The position numbers and the translations under genes were made by a program. Positions 9,561 through 20,834 of a DNA stretch of 32,000 nt are shown one piece after another; the first letter of the stretch is position 1, and every line of letters begins with the position of its first letter. Under the pieces are notes generated by a model. It worked only from the letters and a program-made list of their open reading frames with translations. It was not told where the DNA came from and ran no database searches. Source of the DNA: an uncultured archaeon (GTDB lineage: Archaea > Asgardarchaeota > Thorarchaeia > Thorarchaeales > Thorarchaeaceae). The DNA is taken from contig CAYHAA010000002.1 in the NCBI GenBank assembly GCA_964354495.1, positions 150,001-182,000 of the forward strand. The letters are read 5' to 3'.

Positions 9561-10844
9561 TTGTCGGACAAAGGCTGTACACCGCCAACGGCTATTAGTT
9601 CAGTCGGCACTAGGCAACCAGACAGACGGAGGCTGGGGCTGAGCGGAAACCTATGGAGGCTCGCGGGAGTTGCAGGAGTTGCCCAGTTCAGTATGAGTCT
9701 CTGGGCTTGGCAATTCGGCATCTTTCTCTCGGGCGTTGTTGAGAAGTGGCAGATAGGTCTTACATTCTCAGTCGGCACTTTTGCATTGATTGTTGGCTAT
9801 GCAGTTTCGGGTACTGTTGCAGACCTCATCGGACGCAAGCATGCCATGACATTCGCCTTCGTACCAATGTCGGTGGGACTTTTCGCACTAAGATTCTTTC
9901 CGATTTGGCCTCTCATACCGTTGGAATACGGAGTCACATACTTTGGTTGGGCTTTTGTCATTATCATGAGCAGAGCCATGCCTGCAGATGAGATTGCCCA
10001 GACAGGCGGGCAGAACTCCGCCCGTATCTTCAACATGACGCTGCTGCCAGCGTTTCTGGTAGACGGTATCAGTCCCATCATCGCAGCGATTTTGCTTGAC
10101 TTAGGCTATGTGGCCGGAGACCTCCATCTATTGGCTTCGATCGGGGCGCTAGTAGCAATAGCTGCTAACACGCGGATTGTAAAGGAATCTCTTTGCAAAG
10201 ACTTGATGGAGCGGGCAAAAGCAGGGCCGATGTTCACGCTTAGAGGGTTGGGGAAGAACTTCTGGATCTTCACATTGGGTATGCTCGGATTCGTGTTCAT
10301 TGGAAACCTTGCATTCCCATATCAAGGAAACCTTGCTGTTCAGGAGTGGGGTCTCAGCGATTCAGTATATGGGTATGCCTGGGCAGCATATTCCTTCACG
10401 TGTGTAATCCTCATGTATAATGTGAGTAGTCTTGTGGACAAAAACGTTCGAGTTGCGTTGATTCTTGCAATGTGGAGCATTGCAGTCATTTTGGGCGTTA
10501 TGGCATTCAGCTCAGGCGTACTGGCACTAGTTATAATCAACATAGTCTGGGCAGCGCCTCTAGTGATTTGGACAGGAGCAGAGAACAGCCTTGCAGTGAA
10601 TGGGGTCAGCAATGAACTGAAGGGACGAGCTCTTGGCACGTATCAATTAATGATGAGTGCAACACATCTCTTTGGGGCGTTTTTCGGTGCGATTTTATGG
10701 GACTATTTCGGAAGCCTGCGCACAGTCTTCAGCATTGCAAGTATTGGAGGGCTAGTCGCAGTAATAGTTCTAACATACGCACTGATGTCAGTAGAGATCA
10801 TTAGGAACCCTCGTTCAACAAAAGAGCTAGACAAGACCGAATAA
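9561..10844 (+). CDS. MFS transporter
   Basis: About 12 hydrophobic segments, MFS motif A (GTVADLIGRK), and second-half motif ELKGRALGTYQ. TTG start with GGGGTG upstream. Confidence 0.9.
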   Translation: MSDKGCTPPTAISSVGTRQPDRRRLGLSGNLWRLAGVAGVAQFSMSLWAWQFGIFLSGVVEKWQIGLTFSVGTFALIVGYAVSGTVADLIGRKHAMTFAFVPMSVGLFALRFFPIWPLIPLEYGVTYFGWAFVIIMSRAMPADEIAQTGGQNSARIFNMTLLPAFLVDGISPIIAAILLDLGYVAGDLHLLASIGALVAIAANTRIVKESLCKDLMERAKAGPMFTLRGLGKNFWIFTLGMLGFVFIGNLAFPYQGNLAVQEWGLSDSVYGYAWAAYSFTCVILMYNVSSLVDKNVRVALILAMWSIAVILGVMAFSSGVLALVIINIVWAAPLVIWTGAENSLAVNGVSNELKGRALGTYQLMMSATHLFGAFFGAILWDYFGSLRTVFSIASIGGLVAVIVLTYALMSVEIIRNPRSTKELDKTE

Positions 10845-14736: not shown

Positions 14737-14755
14737 GACTTCAGAGTGCGGTTTT
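14737..14755. repeat. 19-nt intergenic motif, copy 1 (GACTTCAGAGTGCGGTTTT)
   Basis: Matches 20816-20834 at 18 of 19 positions, in the same orientation. Confidence 0.6.
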
Positions 14756-14891: not shown

Positions 14892-15809
14892 GTGCCTAAG
14901 GCTATCTTTTCCATTTGGTGGGATGACCGTCTTGGACCCATGGTCGGGCGTTCGTATCCTGAGGCAGCACCACTCTCCAGTGAGGAGGCCGTCACAGTCT
15001 TCATGGGTCATGGAGCGAACATGGAGATACAGGTAGGATACTCCAAGATTCAGAGTGGCGTTGTGATATCATATATGAGACCACCAAACTGCATAGCCGT
15101 TCTCCTAGATGATGGGGAGAACAGCTCGACAATAGAGAGGAACCTCTTGCGGCTTGCGCCTACTATTGATTTCAATAGCGATACCTGGGATAGAGAACTG
15201 GAAAAGGCATATCGTGGTCTTGAGGACCTAATCACTGAAACCACTGGCGAGGAACTACTCCTGAATCCGAATGTGAAGCATCTCGTCGCAGATATGATGA
15301 ATGGCCGGCTTGCGTCAGTAGCACCAAAACATGTACTGAAGGCAACAATCAGATACCCAGATGCACATGAGTATCTAGGTAACGACGATGAAGAAGTGCT
15401 GAGACTTCTCAGAGACCTCGAGGATGAGGAAGTGCTTGAGTCGCGTACGTATGGCCGAAGAGTTGAGTGTCGCCAGTGCGGTGATTCTGATTTGATAGTC
15501 AGTCTTCTGTGTCCTTCATGCAACTCTGAGGACATACACAAGGTCTACACAGTGTATTGCCCTAAATGCGGTAATCAATTCCAGACATTATTGGCCGATG
15601 ATCTTGCAGTAGTCAAATGCTTGAGCTGCAAACAACCAGTGAAGGTCAGCCAGCTCTCTGTCATCGATGTCGAGCCGCTATGCAATAAATGCGGTACTGC
15701 ATCCAATGACCCAAAGATAGTGTTCAAGTGTGGGACATGCGGAAAGCAGTTGAAAGGGGCCGATCTACTATCGGGCACTGGATTGTCGTACTATTTCAGG
15801 AATGTGTAG
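14892..15809 (+). CDS. uDENN/longin-like N-terminal domain fused to a winged-helix / multi-Zn-ribbon domain (TackOD1-like)
   Basis: N-terminus AIFSIWWDDRLGPMVGRSYPE fits the uDENN/NPR2-type start pattern. The C-terminal half has EEVLRLLRDLEDEEVLES followed by six CxxC pairs (CRQC, CPSC, CPKC, CLSC, CNKC, CGTC). GTG start. Confidence 0.7.
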   Translation: MPKAIFSIWWDDRLGPMVGRSYPEAAPLSSEEAVTVFMGHGANMEIQVGYSKIQSGVVISYMRPPNCIAVLLDDGENSSTIERNLLRLAPTIDFNSDTWDRELEKAYRGLEDLITETTGEELLLNPNVKHLVADMMNGRLASVAPKHVLKATIRYPDAHEYLGNDDEEVLRLLRDLEDEEVLESRTYGRRVECRQCGDSDLIVSLLCPSCNSEDIHKVYTVYCPKCGNQFQTLLADDLAVVKCLSCKQPVKVSQLSVIDVEPLCNKCGTASNDPKIVFKCGTCGKQLKGADLLSGTGLSYYFRNV

Positions 15810-15832: not shown

Positions 15833-17440
15833 CTAGCTATCTTCCTTCTTCTTTCCTTTCTTTATTGTCTTCTTCACTACAGTTCTTGCATCTTTCACTA
15901 TCTTCTCAGCGCGTGCGTCACTGAGTCCATCGATCTTCTGTGCAAGCCTTTGCGGCGTTTCACCAGCGAGCTGGACGGCAGACTCGTAACCAGCCGCCTT
16001 CAGCTTCTTCTCCAGAGCCTCGCCAATTCCAGGAATTCCTTGAAGGGACAGATTTGACTTTGAATCTTCACCGAGTATCTCACTCATATCGTTGTCACTC
16101 AACTCAGCACTCGCATCGATTATGTCGAGCTGGCTCTTTACTGAATCAAAGTCATGTGCTCCAACAAAAGCGTCAACGGTCTTTTTCACTTGACGGTCAT
16201 CAAAGTCAAAGGCCAATTCCTCAATCTCTATCTCCCTTCCTAGAATCTCTGGAAGACCCCCTATAAGGTACATGGCAATAAGAGATGAGAATATGGCCAC
16301 TTGTCCACCGAAGACTGGTAGGTAGTCAGGAATATGAAACTGTATCCCGAAAACAAGGATGTTGAGATCAACAGCCCAGTACAGTACCATATAACCAAGA
16401 AAGAAAAACCAAATCAGGGATAGCCGAAGTCCCTTTGTTCGAACAGAGCCGAGCTCTGGCCAGATCAGACACAGGCATAGTCCAAGAAGGTAGCCCTCGA
16501 AGAACCTTTCAGAACTGAGTAGGACCTGAAGCAGTGAGAACAAGTCCGAATCCTGAAAGAAACCAGTGTATAGAGTGGAACCAAAAATAGCCAATAATCC
16601 CATCATCAAAAGAGCAAAACTGAAGGCGGGCTTTCTACCCCTAATGTCAGCCATGACGCCAGCAACTGCTATGCCAAGGATGAGAGCAAGCGTTTCGAGT
16701 ATGGGTAAGTTAACATACTGACTCAATGATTCAAAAGAGGGCTCTCCTGCAAAATACTTCTGAAAGCTGAGTTTCATCACCAAATACCAAAGCATGTATG
16801 AAGCCATAATCAATACAGTAGGGACGAAATATGTGAGAACATTCCCTGATGCTGCGAGACGCACCCTAGGTTGCCGCCAGGGCTTCATGCCAATTGAAAC
16901 GGTCAGAAACACAATCCCGATAACTGCGGGTAGGGTGAGATAGGAAGAGCCCAGGAGGATGCTCATCTGCTCAAATAACGCATAGAGAGTGACGAGGATT
17001 ATTGTGACGGACAGGAATATTGCTACCGTGCGACCCCGATACTTCACAATGATGCCTTGATTGACACGAACAGTCCATAGAACCAAGAGAGAGGCCAATC
17101 CAGCAAATGAAGATAGTACTAGGAGCAAGTCCACAGTTTCCAGTTGCTGCAACGTGAGCGGAGCAAGTCTAAGCAATGCAACTATTGGCGTGACTACCGC
17201 GGCGAGTACTATCAAGAAGTCAATTCTTCGTATCCGATCTGCAAGAATACCCGTCAATGGAAGTGCAAAGACAGCAGCGAGTGCACCGAACCCTAGTAGT
17301 CCGTAGTGTTCTAGGAGTGTCAGACCAAAGAGAGTGCCTGATATCAGTTTCAGCAGGATATAGGTATTCAGTGCTGCAGGACCAGCAAATAGAATGAAGA
17401 TAATTGCAGTCTTTGTCGGGAACTCACGATACTGAAGCAT
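15833..17440 (-). CDS. MFS-type transporter with C-terminal helix-hairpin-helix (RadA/Rad51 N-terminal-like) domain
   Basis: Motif A occurs in both halves (GILADRIRR, GVMADIRGRK) among about 12 TMs. An acidic linker leads to GIPGIGEALEKKLKAAGYESAVQLAGETPQRLAQKIDGLSDARAEKIVKDAR and a Lys-rich tail. I prefer ATG 17440 (GGAG upstream); the ORF track starts at 17491. Confidence 0.8.
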   Translation of the reverse strand: MLQYREFPTKTAIIFILFAGPAALNTYILLKLISGTLFGLTLLEHYGLLGFGALAAVFALPLTGILADRIRRIDFLIVLAAVVTPIVALLRLAPLTLQQLETVDLLLVLSSFAGLASLLVLWTVRVNQGIIVKYRGRTVAIFLSVTIILVTLYALFEQMSILLGSSYLTLPAVIGIVFLTVSIGMKPWRQPRVRLAASGNVLTYFVPTVLIMASYMLWYLVMKLSFQKYFAGEPSFESLSQYVNLPILETLALILGIAVAGVMADIRGRKPAFSFALLMMGLLAIFGSTLYTGFFQDSDLFSLLQVLLSSERFFEGYLLGLCLCLIWPELGSVRTKGLRLSLIWFFFLGYMVLYWAVDLNILVFGIQFHIPDYLPVFGGQVAIFSSLIAMYLIGGLPEILGREIEIEELAFDFDDRQVKKTVDAFVGAHDFDSVKSQLDIIDASAELSDNDMSEILGEDSKSNLSLQGIPGIGEALEKKLKAAGYESAVQLAGETPQRLAQKIDGLSDARAEKIVKDARTVVKKTIKKGKKKEDS

Positions 17441-17501
17441 AGATCTCTCTCCAAGGAATGAAGTATCCTGAAACTGATGGGTTATGGACATTTCGACTTC
17501 T

Positions 17502-17510
17502 TATTTATAT
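17502..17510. promoter_or_regulatory. TATA-like element in the divergent promoter between the MFS-HhH gene and the longin operon
   Basis: TATTTATAT reads as ATATAAATA on the minus strand and TTTATAT on the plus strand. Confidence 0.4.
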
Positions 17511-17598
17511 CGAGTGACCTGAAGATGCGCCACCAATAAACATCAGCGATATCTTAAAGACCTCCTAGTTTTTCCTCAGATGCAAGGAGTAAGAAAGC

Positions 17599-18501
17599 TT
17601 GGTTGGGAAGCTCGGCGTAAACGAATTCATGGTCTTGACTACAGGAGGTACTCCGATTTTCCACTACTCTACAACAGACACTCCAAAGCTTGATCATCTC
17701 CTCTCGGGATTCATTAGTGCAATAACAAGCTTTGCAACTGAATTTGGCGAGCGATCCGTTCAGAGCCTATCATTCGAAGGTTCACAGCTTCTCTATGAGC
17801 AACACGAGAATAGCTACCTCTTTGTTTTCCTTGTAGAAACTGGTTCATCAGAGAAGGTGCTTCGCGCAGTACTGCGTGAGCTAAGCAAGAAATTCATGTC
17901 ACAATATGAAGACGAGTTGAAGATGGATGTCCCGATTCTAGATGTCTTCATGGCCTTCGAACAAGAGGTCAAAAGCGTACTATCTCACTATGAAGGAGTT
18001 CTTACAGCAATATCAGGCTTCAGCAGCTTCTCAGTCCCTGAAATCAAGAAGGCGAATTTGGACACAGCAATCGAATCAGGCGGTTTTCTTGACGAATTCC
18101 ATCGTGACTTTGGCACCTCGGGCAACAGAATTCTATCCATGATAGATGGCAAGAAGACGCTTTATGATATGAGTCGTGATCTCGGAATCACTCCAGAGGA
18201 AATCCGAGATGTGGTTGAATACCTGGCCATCAGAGGATTCCTAGGCATCTCAAGACTCTGCCCACTAATAAAAGGGAATGATGCGCGCTTTGAAGCATAC
18301 CTAGACATTGTGGGCCTTCCAAGCAAAGACTATCAGCTTCTTGAGAGAGCAAAGAATCTCTGCAACGGGGAGAGAACACTTGGAGAAGTCAGTGAAAGAC
18401 TTGGAGTCAATCCTGAGAGGCTCTATGATGTTCTCGAGAAGATGGGAGAGGAGGTTGAATGGAAACTCGTTGAAGTTTCTACTTCTTTCCATGCACGATG
18501 A
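17599..18501 (+). CDS. Longin domain + tandem winged-helix protein A (NPRL2-like architecture)
   Basis: Longin signature FMVLTTGGTPIFHY...LLSGFISAITSFATEF...LRELSKKFMSQY. Two wHTH-like units: ILSMIDGKKTLYDMSRDLGITPEEIRDVVEYL and LCNGERTLGEVSERLGVNPERLYDVLEKM. TTG start with AAGGAG upstream. Confidence 0.75.
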   Translation: MVGKLGVNEFMVLTTGGTPIFHYSTTDTPKLDHLLSGFISAITSFATEFGERSVQSLSFEGSQLLYEQHENSYLFVFLVETGSSEKVLRAVLRELSKKFMSQYEDELKMDVPILDVFMAFEQEVKSVLSHYEGVLTAISGFSSFSVPEIKKANLDTAIESGGFLDEFHRDFGTSGNRILSMIDGKKTLYDMSRDLGITPEEIRDVVEYLAIRGFLGISRLCPLIKGNDARFEAYLDIVGLPSKDYQLLERAKNLCNGERTLGEVSERLGVNPERLYDVLEKMGEEVEWKLVEVSTSFHAR

Positions 18502-18576: not shown

Positions 18577-19854
18577 TTGGTCAAAGAGATCATTGTGCTG
18601 CAAGAAGGAGGGATACTTCTCTTCCACTATAGCATCGGTGGCACGAAGAAGCTGGATGAACTGGTTGCAGCATTCCTATCCGCAGTCGATTCGTTGGCGC
18701 AGCAGGTAGGACGAGATAGAATCACAACGATTTCGTTTGCTGCCAATAAGCTAGTCTGGGAAAAAAAAGGTAACCTGTTCTTCATTGCAATGATTTCTGA
18801 GGAGAGCACCAATGAGATATTTAGAATCATACTTAGAGACCTCGCTGAGCAATTCGTAAGCATGTATTACGGGGACTTGATGAACGAATTCTTTGACTTG
18901 GGGAGATTCAAGTCATTCACAGATGTTGTGGAAACGACACTCCACAAATTCGACGGTATTCCCGGCTTGGCAAGGCGGTATAAGACGATCCTGCTACCAT
19001 CTGAAGAGCTGAATGTCTTGGCAAAAAAGCTTGTTGAAGTAGAAATCAGCCGAAATATCCTTCGAGGATGTCTTATCACTTCAGATGGGTACATTGCTCT
19101 ATCGCATCTTCGCGCCTATGAAATCGAGATAGTTCTGGACCTTATGCCCATTCTGCTTCGAGATGTTGAAATCAGGGAGCATGCGAGTCTCGAAAAACCA
19201 ACAGCTCTTCTTCTCATCAGGACTCGTAACAAGGGCATCGCCGCATTCATCGTAAGAATTGGATTATCTGAGGAGTCGTACTATGAATTGGTGACACCAT
19301 TCATAGCCTATGCTTCAGAGGCTGATTTTGAAAGCGCAAGGAAACTGGAGCCTGAGAGGATAGAAAGTCAGATTTCATTCTACGATTTTGATAGAGTCAA
19401 GCCCATTGCCAGTATCGACAGCATTGAGGACGAACTGAGTTCGCTGCTTGGCTCAGCCTCTGAAAACAGCCGTTCAGGCGCAATCAAACTGAGAGAAACG
19501 CTTCCAGAAACGCCACTAGTGGCTGAGATCGAGCAGATTCTGGATCTACCTAAGAATCAATTAGACGAATTGCTAGCCAATCTAATAGCTAGAAACATGA
19601 TCAGAATAATGAAGGTGTTTCCAACTCTCGACGAGCGTGATGAGAGGTTCTCAGTGTTTCTGGAGGTCATCGGGATTAAGAAGAAAGACTTCGATGTCGT
19701 TAACACTATCTGGAAGTATTGCGATGGTAGTCTTTCAATACAGGAAATCTCAGAAAGAACAAGCATTCCTGCGCCTAGGATTATGGAAGTCCTGCGCGCA
19801 CTTGGAAACAATGTTACTTGGTCCAACGATCGGAGGTTAGTTCATGTCAGGTAA
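18577..19854 (+). CDS. Longin + roadblock-like + tandem winged-helix protein B, paralog of 17599..18501
   Basis: Longin IIVLQEGGILLFHY...LVAAFLSAVDSLAQQV...LRDLAEQFVSMY. Central ILRGCLITSDGYIALSHL is a roadblock-like pattern. The C-terminus ERFSVFLEVIGIKKKDFDVVNTIWKYCDGSLSIQEISERT aligns by eye with protein A ARFEAYLDIVGLPSKDYQLLERAKNLCNGERTLGEVSERL. Confidence 0.75.
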   Translation: MVKEIIVLQEGGILLFHYSIGGTKKLDELVAAFLSAVDSLAQQVGRDRITTISFAANKLVWEKKGNLFFIAMISEESTNEIFRIILRDLAEQFVSMYYGDLMNEFFDLGRFKSFTDVVETTLHKFDGIPGLARRYKTILLPSEELNVLAKKLVEVEISRNILRGCLITSDGYIALSHLRAYEIEIVLDLMPILLRDVEIREHASLEKPTALLLIRTRNKGIAAFIVRIGLSEESYYELVTPFIAYASEADFESARKLEPERIESQISFYDFDRVKPIASIDSIEDELSSLLGSASENSRSGAIKLRETLPETPLVAEIEQILDLPKNQLDELLANLIARNMIRIMKVFPTLDERDERFSVFLEVIGIKKKDFDVVNTIWKYCDGSLSIQEISERTSIPAPRIMEVLRALGNNVTWSNDRRLVHVR

Positions 19855-20596
19855 AATCATATCAATACATAGTTTTCGTGGAGGAACAGGAAAGTCGAAC
19901 ATTGCTGCAAATCTTGCAGCACATGCTGCGTTGCAGGGAAAAAGAGTAGCAGTCATGGACACTGACATGGCATCACCAGGCATCCATGTCATATTTGGCC
20001 TGGGCCGGGAGAAATTGAAGTATACGCTCAACGACTATCTAAGGGGTTCATGTGATATCACCGATGCTTGTATCGATTTGACAGACCGTTTGGGTATCAA
20101 GAGAGGAAAGCTCTTCCTTATTCCGAGCTCCATGACTGCCACGGATATCACTCGAATTCTGAGAGAAGGCTATGAAGTGGGAGACCTCAAGAAGGGCTTC
20201 ACTGACGTGATTAAGGCAAAAGATCTTGACTACCTCATTATTGACACGCACCCGGGGTTAGACAGAGAGACTCTACTATCGATGGCAATAGCACACTACC
20301 TGTTTGTCGTAGCGAGAATAGATGAACAAGACCTCTTAGGAACAGCCGCCACATTGAGCGTTGCAAGAAAACTTCAGGTCCCTGAAATACGAATCATCAT
20401 CAACAAAAAACCCGGAATCTATGAGGACAAGGCGATTATTTCTGAAGTTGAAACAAAATTCAAGGCACGAGTTGCCACAATCATTCCACTTCTTCCATTA
20501 TTGATAGAAGTCGGTAGTCGCTTCGTGGTCATCTTGAGATATCCGGAAAACGAATTCGCAAAGAACATTGATGACATCTACAGAATAATCCTGTAG
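19844..20596 (+). CDS. MinD/ParA-family (SIMIBI) P-loop NTPase with atypical Walker A
   Basis: HSFRGGTGKSN, VMDTDMASPG and YLIIDTHPG. The start overlaps the upstream gene by 11 nt. No obvious MinD C-terminal membrane-targeting extension. Confidence 0.9.
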   Translation: MSGKIISIHSFRGGTGKSNIAANLAAHAALQGKRVAVMDTDMASPGIHVIFGLGREKLKYTLNDYLRGSCDITDACIDLTDRLGIKRGKLFLIPSSMTATDITRILREGYEVGDLKKGFTDVIKAKDLDYLIIDTHPGLDRETLLSMAIAHYLFVVARIDEQDLLGTAATLSVARKLQVPEIRIIINKKPGIYEDKAIISEVETKFKARVATIIPLLPLLIEVGSRFVVILRYPENEFAKNIDDIYRIIL

Positions 20597-20815: not shown

Positions 20816-20834
20816 GACTTCAGGGTGCGGTTTT
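20816..20834. repeat. 19-nt intergenic motif, copy 2 (GACTTCAGGGTGCGGTTTT)
   Basis: Matches 14737-14755 at 18 of 19 positions. It overlaps a small hairpin GTCTT-AGGA-AAGAC (20805-20818). Confidence 0.6.

Follow-up and report, generated by a model that had tools for sequence, protein, structure and literature searches.

Why does a membrane protein with the fold of the major facilitator superfamily (MFS) end in a helix-hairpin-helix (HhH) domain of the RadA type, and what connects its gene to the operon of longin and MinD-like proteins from which it is divergently oriented? This question is raised by a locus in an uncultured archaeon of the Thorarchaeaceae (Asgardarchaeota). We analyzed the locus within a stretch of 32,000 nucleotides (assembly GCA_964354495.1, contig CAYHAA010000002.1, positions 150,001 to 182,000), which we call the window; the source genome has a size of 3.3 Mb and is 97.7% complete. 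The gene, referred to here as MFS-HhH, encodes a 12-helix body followed by an acidic linker, a (HhH)2 domain similar to the RadA N-terminal domain and a basic tail. A preliminary description of the window had proposed this anatomy from the sequence, and it is borne out by our analysis, for the MFS body by Foldseek and by motif A. With moderate confidence, we propose that the protein is the membrane component of a module that also includes longin proteins with a winged helix-turn-helix (wHTH) and a MinD-type ATPase. There it would act as a transporter or transceptor, with a tail that engages nucleic acid non-specifically, provides a docking site for partner proteins, or does both. From the architecture, topology, fold, conservation and gene linkage described below we infer nucleic-acid binding, interaction with the neighbors and signaling.

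Gene model and occurrence of the fusion

The longest open reading frame (ORF) of the MFS-HhH gene extends over 15833..17491 on the minus strand and has 552 amino acids; residue numbers follow this ORF throughout. We place the start codon at ATG 17440, because all 30 homologs aligned to the window protein (31-sequence alignment) start at or near M18 (MLxYREFP), because a Shine-Dalgarno-like GGAGAG is located 6-11 nt before this ATG, and because the alternative ATG 17491 sits within a promoter-like motif that is conserved in orthologous spacers. The extension up to 17491 is probably unused. The coding sequence would then be 15833..17440 on the minus strand (535 amino acids from M18 plus the stop codon), and the shared start of the homologs and the GGAGAG element thereby uphold the coordinates that had been given for this gene before.

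A protein search with MFS-HhH returned 144 matches, and the same architecture is present in more than 140 sequences. Among the 120 matches listed, all are full-length or nearly so and all but three carry PF14520. The named homologs all belong to "Candidatus Thorarchaeota" or "Promethearchaeota". The fusion occurs in three families, which we designate f1 (the window's own Asgard family), f2 (a family of the same order as f1) and f12 (a family of a different class-level group). Public labels of these homologs read at best "HhH domain-containing protein", and several JGI records name them "flap endonuclease-1-like 5' DNA nuclease". The latter label is wrong, and the transporter part of these proteins has been missed by public annotation. 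It is practically inconceivable that assembly or gene calling has falsely joined a membrane-protein gene and an HhH gene, since many independent assemblies, with more than 140 sequences among them, and all three families contain the same uninterrupted ORF; we rejected a chimeric assembly on the same grounds.

The membrane body is a divergent member of the MFS

The 12-transmembrane (TM) body comprises residues 18-416 (16244..17440, minus strand) and is supported by structure prediction with AlphaFold2 (AF2), by Foldseek, by a profile restricted to the TM region, and by hydropathy together with positive-inside analysis. The AF2 model of MFS-HhH (31 sequences) contains 12 long helices with a predicted local distance difference test (pLDDT) score of 80-94, and the hydropathy peaks agree with these helices. 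When the model was compared with the PDB using Foldseek, the top 50 matches were all MFS transporters with a probability of 1.00 (E-values of 1e-5 to 1e-4, TM-score on target 0.5-0.67). These matches include sialin, VMAT2, MFSD2A, MCT8, DgoT, LacY, OxlT and, at rank 11, YajR.

Sequence models respond weakly to the same protein. The Pfam MFS_1 model scores 17.8 bits, which is under its cut-off of 33.4, and among 17 MFS-HhH orthologs it is found at E<=1 in only four. A PDB sequence-profile search with the MFS-HhH protein gave no MFS match, and the Pfam and NCBIfam libraries contained no family fitting the TM body. We also built a TM-only profile from the 17 orthologs, which represent the three families, and searched it against 1.84 billion protein representatives. 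It matched 35 proteins at E<=1e-3, 20 of them at E<=1e-30, and the weakest matches (P0150-P0154, E ~1e-4) pass as genuine MFS_1/Sugar_tr proteins. Because the profile yields only 35 proteins and the weakest of these are bona fide MFS members, we conclude that the MFS-HhH family is homologous to the MFS and is very narrow. Its body is a divergent member of the superfamily that is not captured by current sequence models, and the relationship emerged only from the fold comparison and from a profile built on the family itself.

A hallmark of the superfamily is motif A, with the consensus G-x-x-x-D-(R/K)-x-G-R-(R/K), located in the TM2-3 and/or the TM8-9 loop. MFS-HhH has a copy in each half. The first-half copy (G81-I-L-A-D85-R86-I-R-R; 17225..17251, minus strand) lies in the TM2-TM3 cytoplasmic loop. 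Within it, D85 and R86 do not vary among the 31 aligned Thor sequences, and its version in f12 reads G-x-x-x-D-K. Conservation of this copy extends over f1 and f12; the only f2 sequence and one f1 locus (L058) show no evident counterpart. The second-half copy (G278-V-M-A-D282-I-R-G285-R286-K287; 16631..16660, minus strand) lies in the TM8-TM9 cytoplasmic loop and is conserved in f1, f2 and f12, with D282 and R286 invariant in all three. Another conserved feature of the ortholog alignments is E328, an acidic residue in the middle of TM10 within SERFxEG (16508..16510, minus strand). By analogy, this residue may be a site of protonation or of substrate binding; the position is occupied by Gln in the f2 sequence. 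Additionally, W344xE346xG348 and R356 are conserved across f1, f2 and f12, and (Y/F)RGR of the TM4-5 loop is conserved in the orthologs. We do not claim motif B, since the TM4 Arg is found only in a subset of orthologs. Because both motif-A loops and the acidic residue in mid-TM10 are conserved, alternating-access cycling has probably been retained, and the body is probably not a decayed anchor but a transporter that is still conformationally active.

A second weak MFS-like gene is present in the window at 9561-10844 on the plus strand (MFS_1 26.8 bits, under the cut-off). It has only a motif-A-like stretch in common with MFS-HhH.

The termini of the protein are predicted to be cytoplasmic

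In the positive-inside analysis the six predicted outer loops of MFS-HhH contain no Lys or Arg at all, and the inner loops, where such residues are found together with the helix ends, are basic. The motif A loops of MFS proteins are cytoplasmic. Because the outer loops lack Lys and Arg and the motif A loops face the cytoplasm in MFS proteins, both termini and the entire C-terminal extension are assigned to the cytoplasm on sequence grounds. This prediction supports a point that the preliminary description had left to be confirmed, namely that the HhH domain is on the cytoplasmic side. An extracellular HhH domain of the ComEA kind was considered and rejected, since the HhH domain follows TM12 of a body whose N- and C-termini are both inside.

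The C-terminal extension: acidic linker, (HhH)2 domain and Lys-rich tail

The first part of the extension is an acidic linker (GREIEMEDLxFDFDERQVKxTVDAFV...DFDSIRSQLDIIDA..SDxDMSEILG; residues 417-480, 16052..16243, minus strand), which is cytoplasmic and conserved. Residues 410-480 contain 19 Asp/Glu and six Lys/Arg, a net charge of -13, and all 18 MFS-HhH orthologs examined share this acidic character. Its start (GREIEMEDLxFDFDERQVKxTVDAFV..DFxSIRSQ) is recognizable in f12 and f2 despite an overall identity of 24-28%. Conservation of this kind indicates that the linker is more than a spacer.

The linker is followed by a (HhH)2 domain of the RadA N-terminal domain (NTD) type (residues 481-536, 15884..16051, minus strand), which was identified by the HHH_5 model, by a PDB profile search and by superposition of an AF2 model. 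Its hairpins are PGIG, with G488 and G490 invariant, and DGLS, with G522 invariant. Over residues 482-536, Pfam HHH_5 reaches 33.9 bits, above its cut-off of 27. In the PDB profile search, the RadA N-terminal domain (2bke, E 4.5e-5) ranks first, ahead of the HhH domains of Topo V, Rad51 and eL32. In the tail-only AF2 model, pLDDT is 86-91 over the HhH domain, and superposition on RadA NTDs gives a deviation of 0.9-1.2 A across 57-59 residues, of which 31-36% are identical. As modeled, the domain is a five-helix unit in which two helix-hairpin-helix motifs pack together. Of the approximately 311-316 positions of the NCBIfam RadA models, only positions 2-66 are matched, with 25-31 bits against cut-offs of 259-361. 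Membership of the RadA/Rad51 recombinases was rejected: there is no RecA-type ATPase core, and the remainder of the protein is a membrane domain.

The protein ends with a Lys-rich tail (TVVKKTIKKGKKKEDS; 15836..15883, minus strand) directly after the HhH domain. Throughout the orthologs the HhH domain usually has a basic stretch after or before it, and in the f2 protein the K-rich stretch stands ahead of the domain rather than after it. The net charge of the HhH domain is basic in most orthologs (+1 to +7); in f2 it reaches +10 over a span that includes the inserted K-rich stretch.

Relatives of the body with other tails, or with none, were also found. P0147, which matches the TM-only profile at E 1.3e-6, is an MFS-like protein with a C-terminal MarR-type winged helix at residues 398-441, and in Asgard genomes it matches the MFS-HhH genes best. 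No MFS-MarR protein of the P0147 type was found in the sampled Asgard genomes. That the same C-terminal position can carry another DNA-binding fold is a modest, independent hint that the job of the tail concerns DNA. Tail-less relatives of the body occur in families f10 and f15 (L078, G009:C264, and L079, G048:C110), and both adjoin a polyprenyl synthase gene. At L078 a small wHTH gene, a ParA/MinD-like ATPase gene and a PadR-like gene come next. The tail-less relatives in f10 and f15 show no clear link to longin genes.

The HhH cassette in other proteins of the lineage

HHH_5 is present in 11 proteins of the source genome, of which MFS-HhH is the sole membrane protein. Other carriers are RadA, a RadB-like paralog, PolX, UvrC, a MutS2-like protein, Hel308 and Hef, and extra N-terminal HhH cassettes are attached to RpoK, eL32 and Top6A, the last with two copies. 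The MFS-HhH tail is 44% and 35% identical to the two Top6A cassettes, 34% to that of RpoK and 33% to that of eL32; the HhH domains of the RadB-like protein and of RadA from the same genome are slightly less close.

The RpoK (Rpo6) protein with its N-terminal (HhH)2 is encoded at G000 C5:53859-54536 (L002:1417-2094, plus strand) and was identified by HHH_5 (48.5 bits) and the RpoK equivalog model. The eL32 gene, with an N-terminal HhH domain and a Lys-rich spacer, is located at G000 C7:42530-43468 (L005:778-1716, minus strand), and eL32 of two other Thor genomes (L068, L069) carries four tandem HhH cassettes. The source-genome copy of Top6A (G000 C1:554783-557053), with two N-terminal cassettes, includes a run of N. 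Top6A of another Thor genome (L067, G124:C4) has four cassettes. The K-rich spacers recall the arrays of Topo V. Soluble HEAT-repeat-like proteins of another Thor genome (L065 and L066; G299:C37 and C96) also carry the HhH/K-rich cassette.

The preliminary description had reasoned that its functional reading would fail if the same tail were appended promiscuously to unrelated proteins without a conserved link to this locus. The promiscuity is real, as the cassettes on the unrelated Top6A, eL32, RpoK and HEAT-like proteins demonstrate; the MFS fusion nevertheless keeps its link to the locus. We do not take the promiscuity as a refutation, because the fusion has remained stable, and attached to this locus, in two Asgard families that are separated by a deep divergence. 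The identified cassette carriers handle nucleic acid, the HEAT-like ones are uncharacterized, and no other membrane protein with the cassette was found. The cassette thus appears to be mobile in the lineage and to keep company with nucleic-acid machinery, a pattern that, if anything, favors nucleic-acid binding.

Distribution and conserved gene neighborhood

We scanned 301 genomes from the phylum, in which 30 families were sampled. The listed matches that include the TM body are confined to f1 (most genomes), f2 (1/1) and f12 (18/19 with a match). Between families the MFS-HhH proteins are 24-28% identical, and the linker core and the HhH domain are retained. The fusion is thus narrow, as its 35 TM-profile proteins and three Asgard families show in answer to the earlier call for a search of domain architectures. 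Its conservation at this divergence indicates an ancient fusion that has become fixed in some of the Asgard archaea.

Downstream of MFS-HhH, and convergent with it, lies a gene for a longin-TackOD1 zinc-ribbon protein (14892..15809, plus strand); this arrangement is conserved in f1 only. On the other side, the divergent neighbor is a gene for a longin-wHTH protein of 300 amino acids (longin A; 17599..18501, plus strand). It is followed by the gene for a second longin-wHTH protein of 425 amino acids (longin B; 18577..19854, plus strand), whose ortholog is the conserved divergent neighbor in f12 as well, and by the gene for a MinD/ParA-type P-loop ATPase of 250 amino acids (19844..20596, plus strand), which is 75-96% identical within f1 and 52-55% identical in f12. 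In the neighboring longin proteins Pfam finds sub-threshold Fuz_longin_1 and a TrmB-type wHTH.

The order found in the window, with the TackOD1-longin gene convergent to MFS-HhH, and MFS-HhH divergent from longin A (and longin B) and MinD, is present at 17 of 17 f1 loci from about a dozen genera. In f12, a divergent pair of MFS-HhH (approximately 25% identity) and a longin gene (424 amino acids) followed by MinD recurs in 14 genomes or more, at loci that have none of the other window genes nearby. A synteny check had been called for, and it shows that the link to the longin-MinD operon is kept in both families; the divergent arrangement first noticed in the window therefore holds at the f1 and f12 loci too. 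Full-length orthologs of longin B (E<1e-50) are present in exactly f1, f2 and f12 among the sampled families. Two f1 genomes, G124 (97% complete) and G131 (92%), lack both MFS-HhH and longin B when searched with the same queries. Their joint absence is weak support for co-loss, because neighboring genes drop out together in incomplete assemblies.

A 19-nt direct repeat (GACTTCAGRGTGCGGTTTT) at 14737-14755 and 20816-20834 encloses precisely five genes, those of longin-TackOD1, MFS-HhH, longin A, longin B and MinD, and it occurs nowhere else in the source genome with up to one mismatch. Its interpretation as the boundary of a mobile or regulatory unit was set aside, since the closest relative (L043) has the first copy only.

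The spacer between MFS-HhH and longin A has a length of 158 bp (17441-17598). It contains a promoter-like motif of the MFS-HhH gene, resembling a B recognition element and TATA box (TATGGACATTTCG on the plus strand, CGAAAnGTCCATA on the gene strand; 17483..17495, minus strand), approximately 45-55 nt upstream of ATG 17440. A promoter-like motif of the longin-wHTH/MinD operon (GCGATATCTTAAAGAC; 17546..17561, plus strand) lies approximately 40 nt before the longin gene. Versions of each motif are present in most of the 18 orthologous spacers examined, and the two look like back-to-back core promoters. A shared operator was sought in the same spacers and none was seen beyond the two promoter-like motifs. 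The preliminary description had spoken of a shared divergent promoter; the divergent genes and the conserved spacer motifs agree with this, and the sharing itself gives way to two separate promoter-like motifs within the 158 bp.

Proposed function and alternative explanations

We propose the following role for the MFS-HhH protein within the longin-wHTH/MinD module. It would be a lineage-restricted, divergent MFS secondary transporter with 12 TM helices and both termini in the cytoplasm. Its HhH/K-rich unit would be a non-sequence-specific nucleic-acid-binding cassette of the type that is also found on Top6A, eL32 and RpoK. Because the same cassette type is attached to these three proteins, the membrane protein most likely owes to its tail an affinity for DNA or, less likely, for RNA. 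MFS-HhH would be the membrane-embedded member alongside one or two longin-wHTH proteins and the MinD/ParA-type ATPase. The linker and tail might then relay the substrate or the conformational state of the MFS body to the longin and ATPase partners, to membrane-held nucleoid DNA, or to the two together. Such coupling would take place at the interface of membrane and nucleoid and would be analogous to that of the tail-bearing MFS sensors Snf3 and Rgt2. More speculatively, the acidic linker might mask the basic HhH domain and tail until a partner or a conformational change frees them. The roles suggested earlier for this protein, as a DNA or RNA tether, as a transceptor or as a membrane sensor that feeds the longin switch, are partly supported, with domain identity and gene linkage as the evidence.

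Several observations weigh against this proposal. The linker is predicted to be helical with low confidence in both the full and the tail-only AF2 models (pLDDT 35-58), values that are compatible with a flexible or partner-dependent segment. The Lys-rich tail is basic in most of the 18 orthologs examined and not in all, and the HhH core of the window protein is weakly basic (+1). (HhH)2 domains can be protein-binding, and the acidic repeat (AR) domains of NusA are among the HhH fold matches. The MFS-MarR type is known from two sequences only (P0147 and P0156). With respect to gene linkage, the wider f1 region is also syntenic, and because this synteny extends beyond the module the f12 comparison alone is informative. 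The longin-MinD operon of f2 lies on another contig than the MFS-HhH gene, and three families amount to few independent events.

The intact MFS hallmarks would be equally expected of an ordinary solute transporter. The cassette, promiscuous as it is in this lineage, would then be a lineage-typical sticky appendage without signaling, which might localize the transporter near the nucleoid or might simply persist, and adjacency to the longin genes would reflect shared regulation or inherited gene order, as the unlinked f2 genes and the synteny of the whole f1 region would allow. We consider this explanation unlikely, given that the fusion and the acidic linker core are kept at 24-28% identity in three families, that the divergent adjacency persists in f12 without other common neighbors, and that MFS-HhH and longin B co-occur in the same three families only. 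A module that encodes a MinD/ParA-type ATPase and several domains of DNA-binding type (HhH, wHTH), one of them a cassette in common with Top6A, could also be a positioning or partition system of the ParA type. MFS-HhH would serve it as a nucleoid-membrane tether: the MFS body would be mainly an anchor, the HhH domain would hold DNA, the wHTH-longins would be adaptors and the ATPase would drive positioning. A mere anchor would need neither two conserved motif-A loops nor an intramembrane acidic residue, however, and longin domains point to NTPase regulation rather than to centromere binding. Since, moreover, no centromere-like repeats are seen in the block apart from a single non-conserved 19-nt pair, we regard a tether as distinctly unlikely.

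The nature of the (HhH)2 domain itself allows a further alternative, in which it is a protein-protein module, like the NusA acidic repeats or the filament contacts of RadA, that docks the longin dimer or the ATPase and binds no nucleic acid. The structural matches to NusA AR domains, the near-neutral HhH core of the window protein and the acidic, conserved linker next to it are consistent with such a role. The closest paralogous cassettes, on the other hand, are all attached to nucleic-acid enzymes and have K-rich spacers, the HhH domain is net basic in most orthologs and usually flanked by a basic stretch, and the relative P0147 has a MarR wHTH in the position of the HhH domain. A purely protein-binding tail is thus very unlikely. 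Our preference remains with MFS-HhH as the membrane component of the longin-wHTH/MinD module, with a tail that may bind nucleic acid, partners, or both.

Comparison with known systems

The known protein closest in architecture is YajR of E. coli (PDB 3wdo), which like MFS-HhH is a 12-TM MFS protein with a textbook motif A and a small cytoplasmic domain after TM12; the two have no detectable sequence relation beyond the superfamily. The extra domain of YajR is a ferredoxin-like YAM domain and not HhH, and YajR lacks a long acidic linker and is not known to be linked to longin or MinD genes. MFS bodies also serve as ligand sensors in Snf3/Rgt2 of yeast and UhpC of E. coli, and Snf3 and Rgt2 signal via long cytoplasmic C-terminal tails that recruit partner proteins. 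Their likeness to MFS-HhH is by analogy only: they are sugar-porter or organophosphate proteins whose tails are unrelated to that of MFS-HhH and lack HhH, and we found no homology beyond the MFS superfamily. MFS-HhH is consistent with the transceptor type in its architecture, a long conserved cytoplasmic tail, and in its linkage to regulators only.

Among HhH proteins, the NTD of RadA/Rad51 (2bke, 3ew9, 2fpm) is the best match of the MFS-HhH tail in sequence and structure. The recombinase core is absent here, and RadA of the source genome resembles the tail less than the Top6A, eL32 and RpoK cassettes of that genome do. HhH-extended eL32, RpoK and Top6A and the Topo V arrays have, like MFS-HhH, (HhH)2 with a Lys-rich stretch, but their carriers are soluble nucleic-acid machines. 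The competence DNA receptor ComEA also has a membrane-bound HhH domain; ComEA has a single anchor helix and its HhH domain is extracellular, whereas MFS-HhH has a cytoplasmic HhH domain and a 12-TM body. In the literature we found no account of an MFS protein that has (HhH)2 in a cytoplasmic tail.

In eukaryotes, a protein with a transporter fold is paired with longin regulators of NTPases in several systems: SLC38A9/Rag-Ragulator/FLCN, PQLC2/C9orf72-SMCR8-WDR41 and GATOR1 (NPRL2/3). SLC38A9 is linked to Rag-Ragulator. These pairs differ from the module described here in that the transporters have APC or PQ-loop rather than MFS folds, in that the NTPase is a Rag or Arf GTPase rather than a MinD/ParA-type ATPase, and in that the association seen here is gene adjacency. 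Longin complexes are recruited via amino-acid transporters, as in the PQLC2-dependent lysosomal recruitment of CSW (PMC12290439). An NPRL2-like family was described in most Thor metagenome-assembled genomes in a preprint by Liu et al., which does not mention a linked transporter (10.1101/2020.10.19.343400). By analogy, MFS-HhH could be an Asgard transceptor that docks NPRL2/3-like longins and a MinD-type ATPase, and so a prokaryotic counterpart, possibly a forerunner, of eukaryotic nutrient sensing by transporters and longin GTPase-activating proteins (GAPs). We offer this as a long shot that is rather improbable in itself; in such a counterpart the output would reach DNA directly via the HhH and wHTH domains and not via TOR.

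MFS transporters and HhH domains are each commonplace, and it is their combination in one protein that seems to be new. Read conservatively, our results describe a new, narrowly distributed MFS family with a putative nucleic-acid-binding appendage. The gene linkage is of interest given that eukaryotic longin GAPs are recruited by amino-acid transporters, a parallel that remains an analogy. If the linkage reflects a physical complex, MFS-HhH would supply the missing membrane anchor for the Asgard longin module, and the locus would provide a testable prokaryotic model for the coupling of a transporter, longin regulators and an NTPase switch.

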